64,000 nucleotides of DNA from positions 364,222 to 428,221 of the forward strand of contig JAZDKJ010000006.1 of NCBI GenBank assembly GCA_043803105.1, given 5' to 3'. Source of the stretch: Candidatus Woesearchaeota archaeon. GTDB lineage: Archaea; Nanobdellota; Nanobdellia; Woesearchaeales; JAZDKJ01. The position numbers and the translations under genes are program-made. The notes beneath the pieces were generated by a model. It was given only the letters and a program-made list of their open reading frames with translations. It made no database searches and was not told the DNA's origin. Shown here one piece after another: positions 6,918 to 41,331 of this stretch (positions are counted from its first letter, which is position 1; the number at the start of each line of letters is the position of its first letter).

Positions 6918-7044
6918 TGGGCCGGACGAGATTTTCTTTGTTTTTTTTTCCAAGTTGCATTCGAACTCGCGACCACCTGATTGCTTTGCAGCTTAAAAGT
7001 CAGGTGCTCTATTGCCCTTATACTCCAGGCTGAGCTACCGGCCC
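6918..7044 (-). tRNA. tRNA-Lys (anticodon UUU) with three putative introns: a mini-insert in the D-loop, the canonical 37/38 site, and a site after the T-loop
   Basis: Minus strand reads GGGCCGG-TA-GCTC-AGCCTGG[AGTATAAGGGCAA]TA-GAGC-A-CCTGA-CTTTTA[GCTGCAAAGCAA]A-TCAGG-TGGTC-GCGAG-TTCGAAT[GCAACTTGGAAAAAAAAACAAAGAAAAT]CTCGT-CCGGCCC-A. The acceptor, D, anticodon and T stems all pair once the bracketed segments are removed. Confidence 0.6.
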
Positions 7045-7059
7045 ATCGTGATTGAAAAA

Positions 7060-7225
7060 CGCCCTGGTCGGGACTTCCAACAACAGACATGCCGTATGAC
7101 ATTTTCAGCTGATTTGAACCCGAGTCGAAGCCTTTTTGCGGTAGCAAACAGTAATTCAACCCTCCCTCTGGTTGAAAAGCCACCTCGACAGGGCTTCATG
7201 ATAGGCCAGACTACACTACCAGGGC
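7060..7225 (-). tRNA. tRNA-Asp (anticodon GUC) with two putative introns: the canonical 37/38 site (about 52 nt) and a site after the T-loop (about 39 nt)
   Basis: Minus strand reads GCCCTGG-TA-GTGTAGTCTGGCCTATCAT-G-AAGCC-CTGTCG[52 nt]A-GGCTT-CGAC-TCGGG-TTCAAAT[CAGCTG...GGAAGT]CCCGA-CCAGGGC-G. The D-arm resembles archaeal tRNA-Asp (GTGTAG...CCAATCAT). Confidence 0.6.
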
Positions 7226-7237
7226 TTTGACCTAGTT

Positions 7238-7250
7238 AAGCCTAATTTAA
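7238..7250 (-). promoter_or_regulatory. Putative BRE/TATA element upstream of tRNA-Asp
   Basis: Minus strand reads AAAGCTTAAATTAGG about 15-25 nt upstream of the tRNA-Asp 5' end. Confidence 0.3.
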
Positions 7251-7432
7251 GCTTTCTAGCCACCAAGCAGTCCACATAGGTCTTCTTAAGCGCATAGAAA
7301 GATTGAATTGGCATGGCCCACCTATCTTCACACCTGTTTATAAAGCTTGTGGTTTTTTCCTGACTTATTCAGGTCTGCTTGAACTTTTGCTTGATTACTT
7401 TCAAATGTTCTGCTCGAATTAAAGCGAGAATA

Positions 7433-7559
7433 TCCCCGAGGCCGGAGTCGAACCAGCAACCTTTCGGTAACGGCTGAGTGTTTTTCACATTCTGCACTGA
7501 GTGCAATATCAAAACACTATCCCTACAGCCGAACGCTCTAGCCATTGAGCTACTCGGGG
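7433..7559 (-). tRNA. tRNA-Tyr (anticodon GUA) with a canonical-position intron of about 49 nt
   Basis: Minus strand reads CCCCGAG-TA-GCTC-AATGGCTA-GAGC-G-TTCGG-CTGTAG[GGATAG...CCGTTA]A-CCGAA-AGGTT-GCTGG-TTCGACT-CCGGC-CTCGGGG-A. The C1-G72 pair is typical of archaeal tRNA-Tyr. Confidence 0.65.
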
Positions 7560-7690
7560 AAGCTTTTTTCCTTAGGAAAAAACCTTGGAAAATATGTTTT
7601 TGCCAAGGCAAAAACGCTGCCTTTAAGGCAGCTAAAGTTGCGAGCTGACTTTTCAGCTCAGCTATTGAGCTACTCAGGGATAATTCAATG
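7560..7690 (-). repeat. Structured element directly upstream of tRNA-Tyr: a near-copy of tRNA-Tyr positions 1-25 followed by a conserved hairpin and three further hairpins
   Basis: Minus strand has TCCCTGAGTAGCTCAATAGCTGAGC, matching the tRNA-Tyr 5' region TCCCCGAGTAGCTCAATGGCTAGAGC at 25 of 26 positions. This is followed by GAGCTGA-AAAG-TCAGCTC-GCAAC, then GCTGCC-TTAAA-GGCAGC, CCTTGG...CCAAGG and TTTTTTCCT-AAGGAAAAAA. Confidence 0.45.
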
Positions 7691-7777
7691 AATAACAAAC
7701 AAGGGTCTTTTTATAAACATTTCTTATCTCTGTGTGTGCTTCTTTCTTCGGAACGACTCAGAATTTTGCTATTGCTA

Positions 7778-8204: not shown

Positions 8205-10154
8205 TTATTTCTGCGGTTCGCTCGATGTCCAGTCCTGCTTGCACATGTTGTCGATTGCAGAGTATGCAAAGCTGCCCAGAGTATAGTCGAGAAGTTTCCA
8301 TGTCAAATCTCCTGCCAGGGCCTTGTTTGCCTGCTGTTGGGCTTCCCTCTCTGCTATTGCTTTTTGCTCGGCAGGGTCATTGTATGCTCCTGCAGTCTTC
8401 GCACTCAACACACTGGCGTATACTATTCCATCCGTACCGAGCACTGTTTTTTCCCCACTTAGTGCTATCCTTTCAGACCTGATTGGCCCACCCTCATCAA
8501 ATGTGTACTCTGTAACCATGGCCCCTGCTTGTGCAATATAGGTGCTTGATATTGCTCGTGTTGGAGGTGGAAAACTTTGTGGTGTACACACAGTGGGAGG
8601 AAATCCCTGCTTGACATATGCACCGTAAGGATACTCACTGTTAGGTTCTTGGTATTGGTAGTCCTGTTGTGCAAAATAGACTTGGGTGAGTGTAGGATCC
8701 TGCGCAGCTTGGCTGGCGCTTATGTCTATGATATTTATATCCGGATATATTGTGCTTTTCCAGCAGTTGCAGTTTGTATTGAAATGGTAAGAACCTTCTG
8801 ATGCTATGCTTGATATCTTCCCGTTATACCCGTTTTGGGTTAGGTCAGTTTGGAGTGTAAGATAGCTCATCCCTGATTTTAGGAGAGGGGTGTTGCCCCC
8901 AGCCACAATATAGTAACTGTATTTACCTTCCTTGTCAGTTGCAGATTGGCTATCAATTTTGCTTATTATTATCTGCCCCTTGTTCCCGTCAAAAACAACC
9001 CCTGCCTTCACATCATCAACCGTAACTGAAGGTTTGACTACCTGTCCGTTCTTCGCTACCCCATCATACATTTTGTCTCCATTCTTGTCAACCAATCTGT
9101 AATTATAGGGCACGGGTCTTCCAGACAACCTGTTCTTTATGTCCTCAAAGTGCAGGTCAGTGCATGTTGGTTCATTAAAGCTCGTTGACATCCAGTTCCA
9201 TGACTCTGTTACCTGTGATATCATTCCAGGAATGTTGGTGAGCTCCATCAATTTCAATACGCATTTTGGTATGGCTGCCTGCTTGATGATTTCTCCCAGC
9301 TGGCTTGCAAGGTATTTTGCCAGGATTGACATAAGTATCTTAGCCACAGTCTTTAGTATAGAACCTTTCCAGTACATGCACAGCGCTTCATCTAGTTGTT
9401 TCTCGCATGCCTCTGTTGATATTCCTGCGGTGCACGCCTGTTCGATGCAGCAATTATACACCTGGTAGATTGTCTTGAGCTTTCTTATGTTAAATAGTAT
9501 TGCAACTGGGCACAGGCAGTAAGTTGCAGTGTAGATGTTCTCATAAGGATTCAGGTGGAAATCTCCGATAGCCAGGTTTCCGTACCCTCCGCCTGTTGTT
9601 GTCTTTCCAACTCCAACCGTGTTGCTCAGGCTTTCAGAGTTCTGTCCTAGCACCGGCACGTTCTTCACTATTCCTCCGCATCCAAACTTTCCTGTGCACC
9701 AGCCGCAGCTTACAAGACAGCACAATCCCTGCACTACCGGCAATTTGTACACGCTAGACCATGCCTTAAACACTTTTTGCATTGCTATGCAAAGTTTGGT
9801 GCCAGTGAGTAGTCCAAGCAGGCAGCAGTCCCCTGCCTCGTCTCCTGAGAACCCTATTAAGCTTGATATTGCCGATAGCACGATGTCTATGGCGCTCATT
9901 ACAGTGCATATCATGAGCATTATTGACGCTACGCTCTCAAGCGTTCCTATTACTCCATTGTCAAGCGAGTCAGCTATGCCTGAGCTTTTCTTGTGCTTCT
10001 CAATGCACTGCTGTCCAGCCTCAAGGTCTGTTGTGCCAGTTTCCTCTGTTGCCTTACCAGTAACTGGATTTACCTCTGCAAATGCGATTGAAGTGCAAAA
10101 TGGGATGCTGATTATGAGAAAGATTAGGATTTTGGCTACTTGCTGTTTTATCAT
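8205..10154 (-). CDS. Secreted cysteine-rich protein, hypothetical (Sec signal peptide, 649 aa)
   Basis: N-terminus MIKQQVAKILIFLIISIPFCTSIAFA|EV looks like a Sec signal peptide with an AFA cleavage site. It has many Cys pairs (CC, CxC) and no recognisable catalytic motif. Confidence 0.6.
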   Translation of the reverse strand: MIKQQVAKILIFLIISIPFCTSIAFAEVNPVTGKATEETGTTDLEAGQQCIEKHKKSSGIADSLDNGVIGTLESVASIMLMICTVMSAIDIVLSAISSLIGFSGDEAGDCCLLGLLTGTKLCIAMQKVFKAWSSVYKLPVVQGLCCLVSCGWCTGKFGCGGIVKNVPVLGQNSESLSNTVGVGKTTTGGGYGNLAIGDFHLNPYENIYTATYCLCPVAILFNIRKLKTIYQVYNCCIEQACTAGISTEACEKQLDEALCMYWKGSILKTVAKILMSILAKYLASQLGEIIKQAAIPKCVLKLMELTNIPGMISQVTESWNWMSTSFNEPTCTDLHFEDIKNRLSGRPVPYNYRLVDKNGDKMYDGVAKNGQVVKPSVTVDDVKAGVVFDGNKGQIIISKIDSQSATDKEGKYSYYIVAGGNTPLLKSGMSYLTLQTDLTQNGYNGKISSIASEGSYHFNTNCNCWKSTIYPDINIIDISASQAAQDPTLTQVYFAQQDYQYQEPNSEYPYGAYVKQGFPPTVCTPQSFPPPTRAISSTYIAQAGAMVTEYTFDEGGPIRSERIALSGEKTVLGTDGIVYASVLSAKTAGAYNDPAEQKAIAEREAQQQANKALAGDLTWKLLDYTLGSFAYSAIDNMCKQDWTSSEPQK

Positions 10155-10156
10155 TT

Positions 10157-12328
10157 CTAACTTACCTCTGGCGCAACAAACTGTGAATAATCGTTAACTG
10201 TGTAATCTACCTGTTTTGTCTTGCCGTCGCAGTTATCATCGACAGTGATCTTTCCGCTTAGCCTGCTGCCATCAATGACTGTCTCAGTGATGCTGTTTAC
10301 CTCAAGGTTCTGGTCTGAGAGGAAATCCACCATGCAGTAGAATTTTATTTTGCTGCCCCTTAGGCTGGTTGCTTTCCATCCAAAGTTCCCGTTGCCAATT
10401 ATCCAAGGTCCTTCGTAGTTGGAATGCGTCAAGGGATTGTTGTCAAAGTCCACTGTCACTGTGTTGTCTCCTTCTTTATAGGTTGAGGGCTTTATGACCA
10501 CGTTGCCTTTGGCCAGCATTCCCACCCGATAGTTTCCGCTTCCTATTATCATGCTCTTCATTGTTGGGTATAGGACAGTAGGGTTTGCAGACGCCCCGTT
10601 TATTGATATTGTTATCTCGTCTTTTGGCCTTGGCTGGTAGCGTGTTTCCTGCAACATTTCTTCAGGTGTTTTTCCGCAGCTGCTTCGTAAATATCCATTT
10701 GTCAGATAATAGTTCTCCAGGAATTTTCTTGCAAGCACAAGCTCCACTTCAATGCTGTAATTCTTCAGTTTCTCCAGTTTGTATTCGCTTTTTACAGCAT
10801 CAACAATCGTGCTGTAACCTGCCTTCTGCAACTTAAGCTGGAGCCCTGCGCATTTCGGCAGCTTTAAGGAGGCTCTGCCGCTGGAGGCTGTCTCTCCTGC
10901 ATCGCATTCGTTGATTGTGTTGTTGCATTGGAATCTGACACCAACTCCAGGCAATAATCCTGTTTCATTCGTTGTGACTACACTAGCCTGCGTGCTTACG
11001 TTGTTGCAGTCAAAGACACTTTTCATGGTCTCGCTTCCGAAAAATGCTGTCAGGTTCACTTCGCTATATGGATTCTGTCCAGTGCACTGCCTGTTCTGGT
11101 TTCCGCACAGGAAGAGTTGCATCGGGAAATAAAACGAGAAGCCCTGTTTTTCCTGCACCAAATTACCAATAATCTTGGCAGAATCGCTGTCTGTGATTTT
11201 TATCACCACAGGATGTGTCAAGAAGTACTTGAACCTGTAATCATAAATGCAGAAGCTTGGGAGGAATGGTATGCTTGTCTGCGATTCCTTGTCCGGGCTA
11301 ATCACGTTGCCGCTTGTGGGTTTGATGTCAAATTTGTTATCTGATTGTGCAGGGTAACTGAATTCTACGCTTATTGAGCTAAGATTTTCGAAATAATTCC
11401 TGATAAAGCTGTCATAAACTCCCTGGACTGAAGCGTCGTTTGAAATCACTCTTTCAAACTTTGTTCCGGCCATCTTTAGGTATGGAAAATTTTTTGAAAG
11501 TATGCCTTCAAGATTTTCCTTGACTTCATCTTTCGTCCATGTTACGTATTTGCAATCTGTGCTTGAGTCAGAGAAGCTGAACGGCGGAAGGTCTTTTGCT
11601 CCCTTTTCTGCCCCGGTATAGCTGTACAGAGAAATCAGTGACTTTGCGTGGTCTTCAAGATAAGTGTCTGCAAACTCTCTTGTGACTAATTCCATAGCTA
11701 TCTCATGGATCAGCGCCAGGTTTACATCCACCTGATAATTGTAGTTGTCCACTTCATACTGTTTTTCGTTCTGTGTGATCTGGATTGGCCAGTGAAGATC
11801 AATTGTTGCCTGTTTGCCGAACCTCACTGTGGTGTTTATTGTTCCAGTCTTGATAACATAACTTTTTTTTCTGAAGACCTCAAAGTCCGTGCATCTCGGC
11901 AGGTTTTCTGTGATGTATCTAGCTAGCTCATTTTGCATGTAATCTGTTGAAGGTACAGAAATCGAATCTTCGGTGATCCAGTAAGGGACCTTGTTCTTTC
12001 CTGTGGCGTCAATAACCTGAATCATGCTCCCAGTTTTAACCACAGTCCTATCGCCGCTTATGCCTGTTGTTTGTAGCTCGGTAGGAATGTATATGAACCC
12101 CGCCTGAAGCCCAAGGATTTCTATTCCTGAATTTGCATAATCACTTAGACACTGTTCCACATATGTCTTAACCTGTTGAGCAGGCTCTGCAAGTTGTAAT
12201 GCCCTTACCTGTTCGACCTGGATTGGCTGCTCTGTTGTTCTTGCCCAGCTAAAGTAGAAGATTGCCGCAGCTATCAGCATGATTATTCCGATGATTATGA
12301 ATATGGTTATCTGTCCTCTTTTTTCCAT
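10157..12328 (-). CDS. Large (723 aa) surface protein with an archaeal type IV pilin-like (class III) signal peptide
   Basis: N-terminus MEKRG|QITIFIIIGIIMLIAAAIFYF has a basic residue, then Gly at -1 and Gln at +1, then a roughly 20-residue hydrophobic helix. That is the archaeal prepilin-peptidase substrate pattern. The mature part is a large Ser/Thr/Asn-rich extracellular domain. The gene ends in TAG and overlaps the downstream gene start. Confidence 0.6.
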   Translation of the reverse strand: MEKRGQITIFIIIGIIMLIAAAIFYFSWARTTEQPIQVEQVRALQLAEPAQQVKTYVEQCLSDYANSGIEILGLQAGFIYIPTELQTTGISGDRTVVKTGSMIQVIDATGKNKVPYWITEDSISVPSTDYMQNELARYITENLPRCTDFEVFRKKSYVIKTGTINTTVRFGKQATIDLHWPIQITQNEKQYEVDNYNYQVDVNLALIHEIAMELVTREFADTYLEDHAKSLISLYSYTGAEKGAKDLPPFSFSDSSTDCKYVTWTKDEVKENLEGILSKNFPYLKMAGTKFERVISNDASVQGVYDSFIRNYFENLSSISVEFSYPAQSDNKFDIKPTSGNVISPDKESQTSIPFLPSFCIYDYRFKYFLTHPVVIKITDSDSAKIIGNLVQEKQGFSFYFPMQLFLCGNQNRQCTGQNPYSEVNLTAFFGSETMKSVFDCNNVSTQASVVTTNETGLLPGVGVRFQCNNTINECDAGETASSGRASLKLPKCAGLQLKLQKAGYSTIVDAVKSEYKLEKLKNYSIEVELVLARKFLENYYLTNGYLRSSCGKTPEEMLQETRYQPRPKDEITISINGASANPTVLYPTMKSMIIGSGNYRVGMLAKGNVVIKPSTYKEGDNTVTVDFDNNPLTHSNYEGPWIIGNGNFGWKATSLRGSKIKFYCMVDFLSDQNLEVNSITETVIDGSRLSGKITVDDNCDGKTKQVDYTVNDYSQFVAPEVS

Positions 12329-13050
12329 ATGAACCTCTCTGTGTAATGAGCATAATAGTTTCGTGCCCAGCTGATTAGTGGCAGTGCTATCATAACCATC
12401 ACTAACAGCTTGAAGAACTGGTCTAATCTAGGGAGCACAAGAAATCGCAATATCACAACCATGAATCCTATCACCGCGTAGGGAACCACAAATTTATGGA
12501 ACCTGCATCCAGTCCAGAAAAGCGCCTTGATGGATTTTTTTATGCTCCGCGTTCTGGCATAAGAGAAAAGTATAATGGTGTTGAAGTGCAATGTAGCCAT
12601 CCCAATGATGACAAACAGGACATTATTATTCAGTTTGATTATTGAAAACAAGGCAATTACGATTGCGACACATAACAGGCCATAGTTGAGCAACGCCATT
12701 TGCCAGAAGTCTTTCAAGGAAAATCTCGTGCCAACCAGCCTGCTCCATATAATCCCTTTGAAGAGGCTAAACTCCGCTATTGCTGCCACAAAGAACAATC
12801 CTATCAAAATGAACAGCGTCGAAAGAAAACCTGCCAGCATATGTAACTGTTCCTGCGCATGGGCTGGGTCAATTGCTGCATTTAGGTTTACCGGCGTGGT
12901 TGCCCTGACTGTCAATGCCCACACAAGAAAGGTGCAGAATAGCGTAGCATAGAAAAGCAGGTCATAGCCATAGGCCACTAGAATCTTCTTGACTTCAAGA
13001 CTTTGCAGAAGAACCTTAAGTTCCTGCTTAAAATACCCTCTTTCAGTCAC
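12307..13050 (-). CDS. Polytopic membrane protein, possibly a CPBP-family (CAAX-like) intramembrane protease
   Basis: 247 aa with about 6-7 TM helices. AEFSLFKG resembles the CPBP EExxxR/FRG motif and TLHFN resembles the H-x-x-x-N motif. The match is weak. Confidence 0.4.
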   Translation of the reverse strand: MTERGYFKQELKVLLQSLEVKKILVAYGYDLLFYATLFCTFLVWALTVRATTPVNLNAAIDPAHAQEQLHMLAGFLSTLFILIGLFFVAAIAEFSLFKGIIWSRLVGTRFSLKDFWQMALLNYGLLCVAIVIALFSIIKLNNNVLFVIIGMATLHFNTIILFSYARTRSIKKSIKALFWTGCRFHKFVVPYAVIGFMVVILRFLVLPRLDQFFKLLVMVMIALPLISWARNYYAHYTERFIWKKEDR

Positions 13051-29580: not shown

Positions 29581-29637
29581 TCACTGGTCGGCTCTGTACA
29601 ATAATCAAGGAGCAGTACACTTGACCTTACAATCATT

Positions 29638-29710
29638 GGGGCTGCGGGGGAGCTGCGAAGTCAGCTCGCACCTTCGTGGGACATAAAGTCCCCCTGACAT
29701 CACAATCAAT
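29638..29710 (+). repeat. Leader element of tRNA-Pro: an imperfect copy of the tRNA-Pro 5' end followed by a conserved hairpin
   Basis: GGGGCTGCGGGGGAGC matches tRNA-Pro GGGGCTGTGGGGTAGC at 14 of 16 positions. This is followed by GAGCTG-CGAAG-TCAGCTC-GCACC, the same hairpin family as in the tRNA-Tyr leader, and then a GGGAC-ATAAA-GTCCC hairpin. Confidence 0.45.
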
Positions 29711-29827
29711 GGGGCTGTGGGGTAGCTTGGTCTAGCCTATCTGGTTTGGGGCAATGCAAAAAACCAGATGACCCCGGTTCGAAAGTTTTATAAAAGGCTG
29801 ATTAACTCGAAAATCCGGGCAGCCCCA
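29711..29827 (+). tRNA. tRNA-Pro (anticodon UGG) with two putative introns: the canonical 37/38 site (12 nt) and a site after the T-loop (about 30 nt)
   Basis: GGGGCTG-TG-GGGTAGCTTGGTCTAGCCTA-TCTGG-TTTGGG[GCAATGCAAAAA]A-CCAGA-TGAC-CCCGG-TTCGAAA[GTTTTATAAAAGGCTGATTAACTCGAAAAT]CCGGG-CAGCCCC-A. Confidence 0.6.
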
Positions 29828-29925
29828 CTCATGTTCGTGGTTGGTCTTCCCAATGGGAAGACGCACCCTTTAGGGTGCCGATGCAGTCAACAGGCATTTC
29901 TGTTGATCCGGGCCGCCCCCACTCA
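29828..29925 (+). repeat. Trailer element of tRNA-Pro: three hairpins followed by an imperfect copy of the tRNA-Pro 3' end
   Basis: ATCCGGGCCGCCCCCACTCA resembles the real 3' end ATCCGGGCAGCCCCACTCA. The intervening 74 nt folds into TCTTCCC-AAT-GGGAAGA, GCACCC-TTT-AGGGTGC and CAACAG...CTGTTG hairpins. Confidence 0.4.
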
Positions 29926-38942: not shown

Positions 38943-39188
38943 ATTCTCTGCATATTTTGGGCTGTATTTAAAGGTTTTCAGGATACAAGGAAAGTTAGGA
39001 TTTCATGTCCTTTTGTAATTTCTTCAGAAGGCAATCCACACCTTGTAATATATTATCTTCTTGAGGTTTTCAATATCGATAAATTTTGCGCCCGGTCAGG
39101 GATTTTCACTTGATGAGATTTGAACTGTCAGAAATTCACTGAATTTCTGAGCATGCTCGGAAACATAGTTTCCGACACCTGGAGACCT

Positions 39189-39250
39189 GTGATGGTCAAT
39201 TGCTTTTCAGGCAACCGCGATACCCGATTACGCTAGCCCGGCCTCGCACA
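39189..39250 (+). repeat. Repeat unit U1 of the tyrS-flanking repeat family
   Basis: GTGATGGTCAATTGCTTTTCAGGCAACCGCGA... parallels U3 at 41121 (GTGATAGTTGCTTCAGGCAACCGAGCGA). The flanking GATTACGC(T/G)AGCCC motif recurs at 39376. Confidence 0.35.
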
Positions 39251-39453
39251 TTTCTAAATTGACCTGAACCTTAATATGTTCAATTGAGAATTTTCCGTAA
39301 GTTCTGCGACAAAACCGAGCAAAATCTTATATACCAGAATGCTTACAAACTTTATGACCTGCGATTTAATTACCTGATTACGCGAGCCCTTTTTATATAG
39401 TATTTTCTGTAGATTTGACCAATGGCTCAAGTAGCCTTGGCCAGAAATAAAAT

Positions 39454-39655
39454 GGGGCTGCTGGGATTTCCATGCTTCTAGGACGGTCTTTTGGCATCAG
39501 CCAAAAGCCTTTTCCCAGGTTTTTGCATATTGCAAAAAGCTGTTTGGACCCAGATTAGGAGGTTTTCCGCTGAAAACCTTAGGTCAAATGCCCCGAACCT
39601 CCAGTGATAGTTTCTCGAAGAGTTTCTCTCTTCTCCAAGTTACACTACAGCCCCA
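39454..39655 (+). repeat. About 200-nt highly structured element with tRNA-Pro-like termini (GGGGCTGC... / ...CACTACAGCCCCA); candidate ncRNA or disrupted tRNA-Pro-derived element
   Basis: Starts GGGGCTGCTGGG, like the tRNA-Pro 5' end, and ends CAGCCCCA, like the tRNA-Pro 3' end. Internal perfect hairpins include TTTTGGC-ATCA-GCCAAAA, TTTTTGCA-TAT-TGCAAAAA and AGGTTTTC-CGCT-GAAAACCT, with an outer CTGGGA...TCCCAG stem. The 3' part carries repeat unit U2 (GTGATAGTT...CCAAGTTACACTACAGCCCCA). Confidence 0.4.
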
Positions 39656-39855: not shown

Positions 39856-40989
39856 ATGGATAACAGAGCAAAATTTGAACTTATAACGAGAAATTTAGAA
39901 GAAGTACTAACACCTGCAGATTTAATGAAACTCATTGAAAATGATGAGCCTTTAAAGCATTATATTGGTTTTGAAATAAGTGGTAAGGTGCATCTTGGAA
40001 CTGGACTTATGTGTATGTCCAAAATTAAAGACTTCATGGATGCAGGTGCGGATGTTTCTGTGTTTCTTGCTGACTGGCATAGTTGGATTAATGATAAACT
40101 TGGTGGAGACAGAGAAGTTATCAAAAAAATTGCCGTCGGATATTTCAAAGAAGCGATGAAGGCTAGCCTTCTTTGTCTTGGTGGTAATCCTGAAAAAATA
40201 AGATTTGTACTTGGTACAGAACTTTATCACAATAATGACGATTATTGGGCAACCATGATTGATGTAAGTAAAAATACGACTCTAGGCAGGATGACTCGGA
40301 GCATTACAATCCTTGGAAGAAAAGAAGGGGAGGGAGTTGATTTTGCAAAATTGATCTATCCTGCAATGCAGGTTTCAGATATTTTTGTTCAGAAATTGAA
40401 CATACCTCATGCAGGAATTGATCAAAGGAAAGCGCAAGTTATTGCAAGAGAAGTTGCTTTAAAAATGAAAGTAAGTCAAATTACTGATAAAGAGGGTAAT
40501 AAAATTAAACCCGTTGCCCTGCATCATCATCTGTTACTAGGTCTTGGCAAACCCCCGGTATGGCCTGTTCCTCAAGATAAATTACAGGATTTATGGTCAT
40601 CAATGAAGATGAGCAAGTCCAAGCCGGACACTTGTGTTTTTGTTCACGATAGTCCTGATGAAATTAAAAGAAAGATTGCAAAGGCATTCTGCCCTGAAGG
40701 TGAAACTGTGTTCAATCCAGTACTTGATTGGGCTAAATATTTATTGTTCAGAGAGACGACTGATGAACTTATAGTAAAAAGGCCTGAAAAATTCGGTGGA
40801 ACTGTTATATATACAACTTACGAAAAACTTGAAAAAGATTTTGCAGACAAAAAAGTTCATCCAATGGACCTTAAAGATTCAGTTGCTGAAAGTTTAATTA
40901 AACTACTTGAACCTGCAAGAATCCATTTTGAAAAACCTGAAATCAAAAAGACGTTGGATCAGCTTAACAAGCTCATAACCACAAGGTGA
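39856..40989 (+). CDS. tyrS: Tyrosyl-tRNA synthetase (archaeal type)
   Basis: 377 aa with a HIGH-like region (GKVHLGTG) and a KMSKS motif (KMSKSKP). The overall pattern is archaeal TyrRS. Confidence 0.9.
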   Translation: MDNRAKFELITRNLEEVLTPADLMKLIENDEPLKHYIGFEISGKVHLGTGLMCMSKIKDFMDAGADVSVFLADWHSWINDKLGGDREVIKKIAVGYFKEAMKASLLCLGGNPEKIRFVLGTELYHNNDDYWATMIDVSKNTTLGRMTRSITILGRKEGEGVDFAKLIYPAMQVSDIFVQKLNIPHAGIDQRKAQVIAREVALKMKVSQITDKEGNKIKPVALHHHLLLGLGKPPVWPVPQDKLQDLWSSMKMSKSKPDTCVFVHDSPDEIKRKIAKAFCPEGETVFNPVLDWAKYLLFRETTDELIVKRPEKFGGTVIYTTYEKLEKDFADKKVHPMDLKDSVAESLIKLLEPARIHFEKPEIKKTLDQLNKLITTR

Positions 40990-41120
40990 TTTTATTCCTT
41001 TTTGTATGTTTATTCTAGATAGTTAATATTAGAATACAAAATTTCAGGATTAGCCTAAAATGTTTTATGCTTCTTTTCGAATTCCGGTCGGACGCATTCT
41101 GGTTTCATCCTCAAGCGTAA

Positions 41121-41184
41121 GTGATAGTTGCTTCAGGCAACCGAGCGAACTGGTTGGCGCTGGCCAAGTTACACTACAGCCCCG
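41121..41184 (+). repeat. Repeat unit U3 (GTGATAGTT ... CCAAGTTACACTACAGCCCCG)
   Basis: Shares a 20-nt identical 3' block, CCAAGTTACACTACAGCCCC, with 39636-39654, and shares the 5' GTGATRGT...TTGCTT(TT)CAGGCAACCG module with U1. Confidence 0.4.
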
Positions 41185-41220
41185 TTGATTGTTATTGTTT
41201 CGCGAAGCTCACAAGAAACC

Positions 41221-41331
41221 TGATAGTTTCTTGGGAGTCCCAAAAAACTTCAAGTTTTTTGTGACGAAAGGCGACTGAAAGGAGTGTAAAGGTGCCAGCT
41301 GACTTCTCAGCTGAGTAGCACTACAGCCCCA
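41221..41331 (+). repeat. Repeat unit U4 (TGATAGTTTCT ... hairpin ... GAGTAGCACTACAGCCCCA)
   Basis: Begins TGATAGTTTCT as U2 does. It contains a CAGCTGA-CTTC-TCAGCTG hairpin, related to the tRNA-leader hairpin family, followed by GAGTAGC as in the tRNA-Tyr 5' region. It ends CACTACAGCCCCA. Confidence 0.4.

Follow-up and report, generated by a model that had tools for sequence, protein, structure and literature searches.

A family of small hairpin elements flanked by target duplications at tRNA genes of DPANN archaea

How archaeal tRNA genes gain many non-canonical introns and become fragmented is an open question, and one locus of Candidatus Woesearchaeota archaeon (assembly GCA_043803105.1) raises it in a compact form: why does a complete tRNA-Tyr(GUA) gene stand downstream of a truncated copy of its own 5′ end and a row of hairpins? 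We analysed the 64,000-nucleotide stretch of contig JAZDKJ010000006.1 that holds this locus (positions 364,222 to 428,221 of the forward strand; hereafter the window) together with related loci from other genomes, which are referred to by number (L096 and so on). Homologues of its proteins likewise assign the window to a genome of Woesearchaeota. The 96-nt insert that separates the copy from the gene probably consists of two small, non-autonomous, selfish hairpin modules, E and F, that populate the tRNA genes of Woesearchaeota and related DPANN archaea. Element E occurs in many copies and in both orientations, is flanked by duplications of its target, is also found inside introns, and is present at some orthologous loci and absent from others.

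The tRNA-Tyr locus and its composite insert

All features of the tRNA-Tyr locus are given on the minus strand of the window. The intact tRNA-Tyr(GUA) gene (7433-7559) was recovered with Rfam (RF00005, 54.6 bits) and has a canonical intron of 57 nt at position 37/38. Upstream of it and in the same orientation lies a truncated copy of its positions −1 to 25 (7656-7680), which comprises the acceptor 5′ strand and the D-arm. This copy forms the left direct repeat and the first 25 nt of the intact gene form the right one. A reading of the locus made from its sequence only had already described a same-orientation partial copy, which holds, but had put the match at 25 of 26 positions, which is overstated: global alignment of the copy with 7535-7560 gave 23 identical columns of 26, the differences being C4>T, G18>A and one deleted A. 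A 24-nt query taken from the copy matched nothing but itself at up to three mismatches, with 0.00 matches expected from shuffles; the intact gene went unscored in this search owing to the indel difference. With U4 and without G18, the copy does not look like a functional exon.

The copy is followed by the 7-bp hairpin and the three further perfect hairpins of which the sequence-only reading had spoken. The first, P1 (GAGCTGA-AAAG-TCAGCTC, 7642-7659), has an AAAG loop, and its first four bases serve also as the D-stem 3′ strand of the copy; together with the adjoining GCAAC it makes up the 5′ module of E (7637-7659). The next hairpin in the predicted fold, H2 (GCTGCC-TTAAA-GGCAGC, 7616-7632), also belongs to E, and H3 (7596-7615) and H4 (7564-7582) lie, with U-runs and A-runs, in F (7560-7615), a separate repeat module joined to E. 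The insert is thus composite, E (7616-7659) being followed by F. The direct repeats around a structured insert stand as described earlier, the insert measuring 96 nt. The fold of the whole leader was far more stable than those of shuffled sequences (z = −4.7).

A canonical TATA-like box, TTTATAAAAAG, was read from the sequence at 7707-7717, ~30 nt upstream of the partial copy and not upstream of the intact gene. Since a box of this type stands 30-37 nt before +1 at the empty tRNA-Tyr sites of relatives, the box is presumably the original tRNA-Tyr promoter, now driving the copy, the insert and the tRNA. A promoter inside module F is unlikely because the window's ATATTTT, though at the right distance, is not conserved in the close relative L096, and the U-runs of F are unlikely to be terminators because tRNA-Asp and tRNA-Lys are co-transcribed across a T5 run. 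These two genes and tRNA-Tyr form a cluster upstream of rpoH-rpoB-rpoA.

E as a multicopy family with target duplications

We scanned the pattern AGCTGNNAAGTCAGCTNGCA over 185,579 species genomes, one per species, and obtained 95 loci. About half of them were scattered chance matches in bacteria, and ~45 were copies with an extended consensus, nearly all in metagenome-assembled genomes (MAGs) of Woesearchaeota/Nanoarchaeota; the few copies in bins labelled Methanosarcinales or Omnitrophota may have been mis-binned. The consensus reads N-AGCTG-NNAAGT-CAGCT-N'-GCACCTT, then a second hairpin, often GGGTTTCGC...GCTCAAGCCC. Elements E are hairpin elements of 45-130 nt composed of P1, GCAMC and H2, in which the first hairpin and GCAMC constitute the conserved 5′ module. 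The right end is an unconserved, A-rich and G-poor tail (47% A, 8% G, 30% T and 15% C, counted on the strand of the element in 15 copies), the 5′ end being the sole defined one. The P1 pairing was kept in 98.8% of the cells of 14 versions, with five of its six pairs changed on both sides and a covariation score reached by none of 500 shuffles; nine of these versions had been found via the P1 sequence itself and the other five were recognised as hairpins at the equivalent position.

The window alone holds at least four copies of E, and three or four per MAG are present in JAFGRM and CAYGVN. In one MAG, two copies at different tRNAs (L011 and L043) have exactly the same 51-nt core, which argues for recent movement. 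No Rfam family matched E at the gathering threshold, nor at E≤5 in the window or E≤1 in eight further loci, and 2.9 million viral contigs gave no true match, the four matches found being chance ones in coding-like sequence that lacked the extended consensus. In the published literature that we searched, neither the E family nor leader duplications of this sort were described for DPANN archaea. We conclude that E is a small, previously undescribed repeat family of DPANN archaea that targets tRNA genes and is linked to tRNA introns.

A separate case is JACQXV01, where ~19 copies of the P1 module, many at contig ends, sit inside a miniature inverted-repeat transposable element (MITE) of ~260 nt with its own terminal inverted repeat GTATTTGTTTAGC (loci among L001-L073, e.g. 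L016 7420-7730). We considered that these copies might mark one end of a transposase-bearing insertion sequence and rejected the idea because the MITE merely carries the P1 module; it says nothing about how E itself moves. In another MAG, JBDRIZ01, a DDE transposase gene (DUF772/DDE_Tnp_1_6; L110 362-1855) lies near aRF-1, and the same MAG has E copies (L028, L039, L078), with no evidence linking these to the transposase.

The duplications around E are not restricted to tRNA-Tyr. A direct repeat scoring at least 11 was present in 17 of the 23 non-redundant archaeal copies, against 3 of the 54 bacterial chance-match loci. At these copies a truncated stretch of 12-63 nt lies left of P1 and the same sequence restarts intact 44-190 nt downstream; the repeats end 0-6 nt before P1 in all but two of the 17 (L039 and a misaligned L096 unit). 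The longest flanking repeat measures 63 nt (L068) and the shortest 5-6 nt, in a tRNA-Lys intron of L096. Most targets are ends of tRNA genes. Inserts on the same strand as the tRNA stand at 5′ ends (three window loci, L033, L039 and L043), and those on the opposite strand at 3′ ends (L032, L047, L065, L068, L085, L086 and window 29844-29921). Targets other than tRNA genes, often palindromic, were found in L030, L004, L006 and L013, and L049 is a non-tRNA site with no clear palindrome; the target in L070 is a T-arm-like sequence. Because E lies on either strand relative to its host gene, its conserved structure is not explained by a role in the host transcript alone.

Besides the scan, the tRNA-Tyr loci of relatives were fetched through the neighbouring proteins and a tRNA-Tyr pattern, and were thus not chosen via P1. 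L096 (RpoB'' 91% identical to that of the window) has three stacked units of copy and hairpins. L097, L098 and L101 (88%) have one unit each. These three were assembled independently and match exactly here, which shows that the arrangement is no artefact of assembly. L105 has one unit, with F, here on its own, upstream of the copy. In L099 (86%) and in the more distant L100, L102/L106, L103/L104 and L107 a plain promoter lies directly upstream of tRNA-Tyr. Unit number is therefore one in the window and 0-3 among close relatives. At tRNA-Pro(UGG), L108 (on the same contig as L097) and L111 are empty on both sides of the gene. Empty sites, for which a comparison with related genomes had been proposed, were thus found at both tRNA genes, and together with the variable unit number they support insertion with target duplication. 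A search for the hairpin followed by RCAMC in 94 kb of relatives' DNA placed 5 of 11 matches in tRNA leaders or introns. The junction GCTCAACTGCA is common to unit 1 of L096 and L105, and GCTCAATGGTTAACGCG to unit 2 of L096 and L097, which indicates that at least some insertions are old. In the L096 unit that matches the window, H2 is GCCACC-ATAAA-GGTGGC, with two compensatory pair changes. The sequence-only reading had held that relatives with the same arrangement and compensatory covariation would speak against a mobile insertion; this pattern is seen in part, but it does not overturn mobility, as the units vary from 0 to 3.

E and F are also found inside tRNA genes. E lies in the D-loop of tRNA-Glu in L076 and starts the T-loop intron of another tRNA in L078, and since both inserts lack a long duplication they must be spliced out. 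The tRNA-Lys D-loop intron is ~90 nt long only in L096 (4574-4660), against 13-15 nt in the window (13 nt), L097 and L099; the long version begins with a P1-like hairpin and ACACC and is flanked by the exon repeat GCCTG(G) of 5-6 nt. In five close relatives the orthologous T-loop intron of tRNA-Asp is occupied by different hairpin modules, and its length accordingly varies between 26 and 88 nt. Module F is antisense in the T-loop introns of tRNA-Pro(CGG) in the window (39488-39542), of tRNA-Pro in L111 and of tRNA-Asp in L105. For the T-loop introns, a bulge-helix-bulge motif of the form GGG-UUCA-AAN-hairpin-UGAA-NNU-CCC is plausible.

In the window, the hairpin motif with GCA has three matches, against 0.01 expected. 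The recurrence of the hairpin at tRNA-Pro that had been reported was found at 29650-29670 (+), before tRNA-Pro(UGG), and a further match, unlisted earlier, at 41293-41313 (−). At both sites a tRNA-Pro gene has its first 12 nt copied directly before the hairpin. At tRNA-Pro(UGG) (29711-29827, +), the left repeat of 9 leader nt and positions 1-12 (29629-29649, +) is identical at 19 of 21 positions to 29702-29722, and E (29650-29701, +) comprises P1 with GCACC (29650-29672) and, as we read it, H2 (29676-29694). A second hairpin element, antisense, was read at the 3′ end of the same gene (29844-29921, −): it consists of a copy of the tRNA 3′ end (29906-29921), then the P1-like hairpin CAACAG-AAATGC-CTGTTG (29888-29905), then two more hairpins, and the same P1 variant follows copy 0 of tRNA-Tyr in L096. 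The other site (41184-41330, −) has a copy of positions 1-12 of tRNA-Pro(CGG) (41314-41330), E with P1 and GCACC (41291-41313) and more hairpins, and next to it lies "copy b" (41115-41183, −), a longer partial copy of the tRNA-Pro(CGG) 5′ region (positions 1-20 followed by another D-loop insert). With 1.5 kb between it and the real tRNA-Pro(CGG) gene (39453-39654, −), the stranded "copy b" is an example of a scattered tRNA fragment. The open reading frame (ORF) between the two (39856-40989, +) encodes a class I Trp/Tyr-tRNA synthetase according to Pfam and not a recombinase. Apart from this, an anticodon-arm-like stretch in "copy b" resembles the neighbouring candidate tRNA-Phe.

Such inserts and introns hide tRNA genes from standard finders. 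ARAGORN found none of at least five tRNA genes in the window and Rfam detected tRNA-Tyr only; the remaining ones were parsed by eye. The tRNA-Asp gene (7060-7225, −) has a T-loop intron (7073-7111, −) that starts with CAGCTGAAAATGTCA, a degenerate P1, and tRNA-Lys (6918-7044, −) has D-loop, anticodon-loop and T-loop introns. The tRNA-Pro(UGG) gene, detected by no tool, has anticodon-loop and T-loop introns and orthologs in L108 and L111. The genes read at 6918-7225 (−), 29711-29827 (+) and 39453-39654 (−) have two or three introns each, in the D-, anticodon- or T-loop. Directly downstream of tRNA-Pro(CGG) there is a candidate multi-intron tRNA-Phe(GAA) (39090-39252, −), to which Rfam gave 22 bits only and in whose intron the hairpin with ACACC matches on the opposite strand (39158, +).

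Several other features of the region were recorded. The tRNA-Asp leader runs for ~110 nt from its TATA box (window ~7226-7345, −) and contains a block, ATGCCnAnTCAATCTTTCT, conserved in five genomes (also L096 4190-4320, L097 4360-4480, L099 4350-4470 and L105 2340-2455), perhaps an unannotated small RNA or a signal for processing. Three consecutive ORFs of 649, 723 and 247 aa beside the tRNA-Tyr locus (8205-13050, −) have no Pfam match, and the two large ones (649 and 723 aa) are syntenic in L096. At 11905-11968 (+) the C/D-box snoRNA model SNORD29 matched weakly, with 31 bits and an E-value of 0.03, short of the gathering score; the match could stand for an archaeal C/D box sRNA or be due to chance.

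Origin of the insert and rival explanations

The sequence-only reading had offered, among other explanations, the target-site duplication of a tiny tRNA-targeting mobile element, and a multicopy family with target duplications and with empty sites in relatives supports this. We envisage that E entered the tRNA-Tyr gene at about position 25 and that the same event duplicated everything between the insertion point and a site just beyond the gene boundary. The truncated tRNA 5′ fragment, now inert, would have stayed at the original promoter, beside P1, and a complete tRNA-Tyr gene would have been re-formed downstream of E. Copy, E, F and tRNA are probably transcribed as one precursor from the promoter that precedes the copy, and RNase P or a similar 5′ processing activity would remove the structured leader of ~125 nt. 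The hairpins would be kept because E needs them to propagate, and perhaps also because a self-contained leader leaves the folding of the tRNA undisturbed; the same elements would persist in D-loops and T-loops when they can be spliced as introns. The DNA-level event, the transcription of the leader and its removal by RNase P, the inertness of the copy and a gene conversion by which the copy tracks its tRNA are steps that we infer.

Several observations weigh against this selfish-element explanation. The Pfam scan of the 27 window ORFs detected no transposase, reverse transcriptase, integrase or Cas1; E has no terminal inverted repeats, and flanking repeats of 5-63 nt fit no established prokaryotic transposition mechanism. 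Furthermore, the repeats at tRNA genes begin 0-9 nt from the mature tRNA end in 13 of 15 cases, which random staggered cuts would not obviously predict and which selection for a restored gene would explain only in part. Finally, all six upstream copies, from four lineages, carry the lineage-specific bases of their own tRNA at acceptor positions 5-6 (GA in the window, GT in L096, GC in L097 and CA in L105), while the hairpin parts of the same units have diverged with compensatory changes. Such matching would need either frequent gene conversion over a short tract (the first ~16 nt) or a selected function of the copy, and the compensatory H2 and P1 changes between apparently orthologous units could mean selection in place.

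The combination of one defined end, an A-rich tail and variable repeats is most reminiscent of target-primed retroposition, a likeness that is suggestive. It leads to a bolder proposal: E and F would be the missing vehicle of archaeal tRNA intron gain, or "intron transposition", moving via an RNA intermediate in a target-primed way similar to that of short interspersed nuclear elements (SINEs). The defined 5′ hairpin, the A-rich tail and the target duplications of variable length are what led us to it; as a whole we regard it as unlikely. If it were true, the reach of the duplication would decide between two fates of an insertion, that of an intron and that of a leader or trailer insert beside a stranded tRNA fragment. 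In a milder form of the proposal, the stranded 5′ fragments would stay matched to their tRNA because they act in the folding of the precursor.

A function of that sort is central to the explanation of the insert as a structured leader, in which the copy would pair with the 3′ acceptor strand or trailer and the hairpins would be a module selected by the host for the folding, processing order or stability of a multi-intron pre-tRNA. The tracking of acceptor substitutions in four lineages, which includes all three copies of L096, speaks for this explanation, and the sole acceptor mismatches (C>T in the window tRNA-Tyr copy and in copy 2 of L033) would keep G-U pairing with the 3′ strand. Congruently, the minimum-energy fold predicted for the precursor joins the 3′ acceptor strand by 10 bp to the upstream copy in place of the true 5′ strand, and P1 and H2 show compensatory changes between units at one locus. 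On the other hand, L099, about as close to the window as L097, and every more distant relative have a plain promoter before tRNA-Tyr; between 0 and 3 units are present depending on the genome, and tRNA-Pro orthologs lack the unit. Copies of the modules also lie antisense behind tRNAs, at sites other than tRNA genes and within a MITE, and no Rfam family matches them. Taken together, these results make a host-selected leader quite unlikely.

A history as an intron is also hard to reconcile with part of the data. Here E would once have been an intron at 25/26, and a DNA copy of the intron-less precursor would have undergone homologous recombination on the 3′ side and illegitimate recombination within the intron, leaving the old exon 1 and part of the intron upstream of a restored gene. 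P1 does stand exactly at the 5′ end of real introns (L076, L078 and the window tRNA-Asp), the insertion points, as read from the sequence, fall in the D-loops and T-loops where this lineage has introns, the repeats begin 0-9 nt from mature tRNA ends, and the 3′ boundary of E is not conserved. Equal repeats, however, flank E at non-tRNA sites, and the tandem units of L033 and L096 would need repeated rounds of intron gain and conversion. The 3′-side junctions carry no CCA and the repeats include flanking nucleotides, so that the mature tRNA was not the template, a result that also disposes of a CCA-containing cDNA of mature tRNA, and there is no reverse transcriptase among the window ORFs scanned. 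We therefore hold this origin to be quite unlikely.

That a tyrosine recombinase integrated a plasmid or virus at the 5′ end of tRNA-Tyr and that a later deletion left attL, a stub and attR is very improbable, although direct repeats of a tRNA terminus are a hallmark of archaeal integrative elements, as in the 44-bp repeat of SSV1, and a tRNA-Thr 5′ fragment lies 1.8 kb upstream of its gene in Caldiarchaeum (PMC3293823). No integrase is encoded among the 27 window ORFs and the inserts contain no ORF; they are consistently small (44-190 nt), with one conserved end and dozens of targets, some of them non-tRNA, and the viral contigs hold no true match. Nor would deletions that arose independently end time and again in the same two hairpins. 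The attachment-site scar proposed in the sequence-only reading thus found no backing, and the alternative 5′ exon that it had also proposed fares as badly: that a splicing endonuclease joins the upstream copy to the tRNA body has next to no likelihood. The lineage does splice introns at many non-canonical positions, and the precursor would hold both copies. The junctions, however, are direct repeats, at which, in the window tRNA-Tyr and L043 that were read for this, the 4-bp helix of a bulge-helix-bulge cannot form; the copies carry A18 without G18-G19 (tRNA-Tyr) or C8 (tRNA-Pro), and an intact gene lies immediately downstream. A processing decoy is unlikely because the same modules are found antisense at tRNA 3′ ends and at non-tRNA sites.

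Other candidates were rejected on single grounds. A known cis-regulatory or catalytic RNA (T-box, riboswitch or self-cleaving ribozyme) is discarded by the absence of any Rfam covariance-model match over the element, a hammerhead or other ribozyme by the lack of a conserved core and of an Rfam match, and a tRNA-like body by the lack of a tRNA model match. E has no C box, as a K-turn or C/D box RNA would, and an H/ACA RNA would need a larger hairpin, followed by ACA where E has GCA. As a scaffold for a TnpB/IscB-type guide RNA it is far too small and has no consistent adjacent motif. The differences between repeats are not confined to adenines (C>T, G>A and a deletion in tRNA-Tyr; C/G and T/A swaps in L070), as those of a diversity-generating retroelement would be. 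The copy is not the 5′ piece of a split or tri-split tRNA, since an intact tRNA-Tyr lies 96 nt downstream and the copy lacks G18-G19, and the insert is not a bulge-helix-bulge intron of tRNA-Tyr, as it is upstream of a complete gene and its direct-repeat junctions cannot pair.

The interest of E and F goes beyond this locus. Within one lineage the E family displays empty sites, duplication-flanked inserts at either tRNA end, stacked insertions, stranded tRNA fragments and the same module as a D-loop or T-loop intron, states that make the process testable by population metagenomics and transcriptomics of DPANN archaea. Moreover, standard tRNA counts for genomes of this kind will be too low. A 2026 survey of 208 complete Nanobdellota genomes reported missing tRNAs and no feature of the E type (bioRxiv 10.64898/2026.05.13.725050). 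Genes hidden by inserts and introns bear on such reports of "missing" tRNAs.

Comparison with known systems

We compared E with the mobile elements that it resembles in size, structure or choice of target. Among archaeal elements, casposons are kilobases long, encode Cas1 and a polymerase, and have terminal inverted repeats and target duplications of 14-15 bp; like E, they insert at the 3′ ends of tRNA genes with a target duplication. MITEs, REP-RAYT elements, Rickettsia palindromic elements and the palindrome-associated transposable elements of the IS200-IS605 type are, as E is, short, gene-less, multicopy, rich in hairpins and tolerated in RNA or other genes. E, small, non-coding and multicopy as a MITE is, differs in having no terminal inverted repeats, only its 5′ end being defined, and in having long and variable repeats in place of a fixed duplication of 2-10 bp or none. 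An assignment to the IS200/IS605 type, which inserts 3′ of a fixed target of 4-5 nt and makes no duplication, fails because the left junctions of E share no motif and long duplications are present.

SINE-type and tRNA-targeted eukaryotic retroelements share with E a structured 5′ end, an A-rich tail, variable repeats and insertion beside tRNA genes. Flanking duplications of 5-63 nt together with the tail place E with the SINE-like elements in this regard, which is suggestive only, and E differs from them in having neither a known reverse transcriptase partner nor an internal promoter. To our knowledge, SINE-like retroposition has never been shown in archaea.

In Thermoproteales, related short sequences lie at different positions of different tRNA genes, a case of intron transposition whose mechanism is given as unknown in a review (PMC4090602). 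Both cases imply movement between tRNA genes, but that phylum is a different one and its elements are known only as introns. We know of no report of flanking target duplications or extragenic copies for those introns.

The nearest precedent for the tRNA-Tyr arrangement is the tRNA-Thr gene of Caldiarchaeum subterraneum, where a 5′ fragment, a 1.8-kb insertion and a restored gene follow one another (Sugahara et al. 2012, PMC3293823). As in the window, the intact gene is preceded by a direct repeat made of a 5′ tRNA fragment, an arrangement that is tied to a mobile insertion and to the gain of a D-arm intron, and tRNA fragments are scattered, as "copy b" of tRNA-Pro(CGG) is. The Caldiarchaeum insertion, however, is 1.8 kb long, encodes a recombinase and is explained by att recombination at a single locus, whereas the inserts described here are gene-less, 44-190 nt long and multicopy, share a conserved hairpin end and occupy many targets in many genomes.

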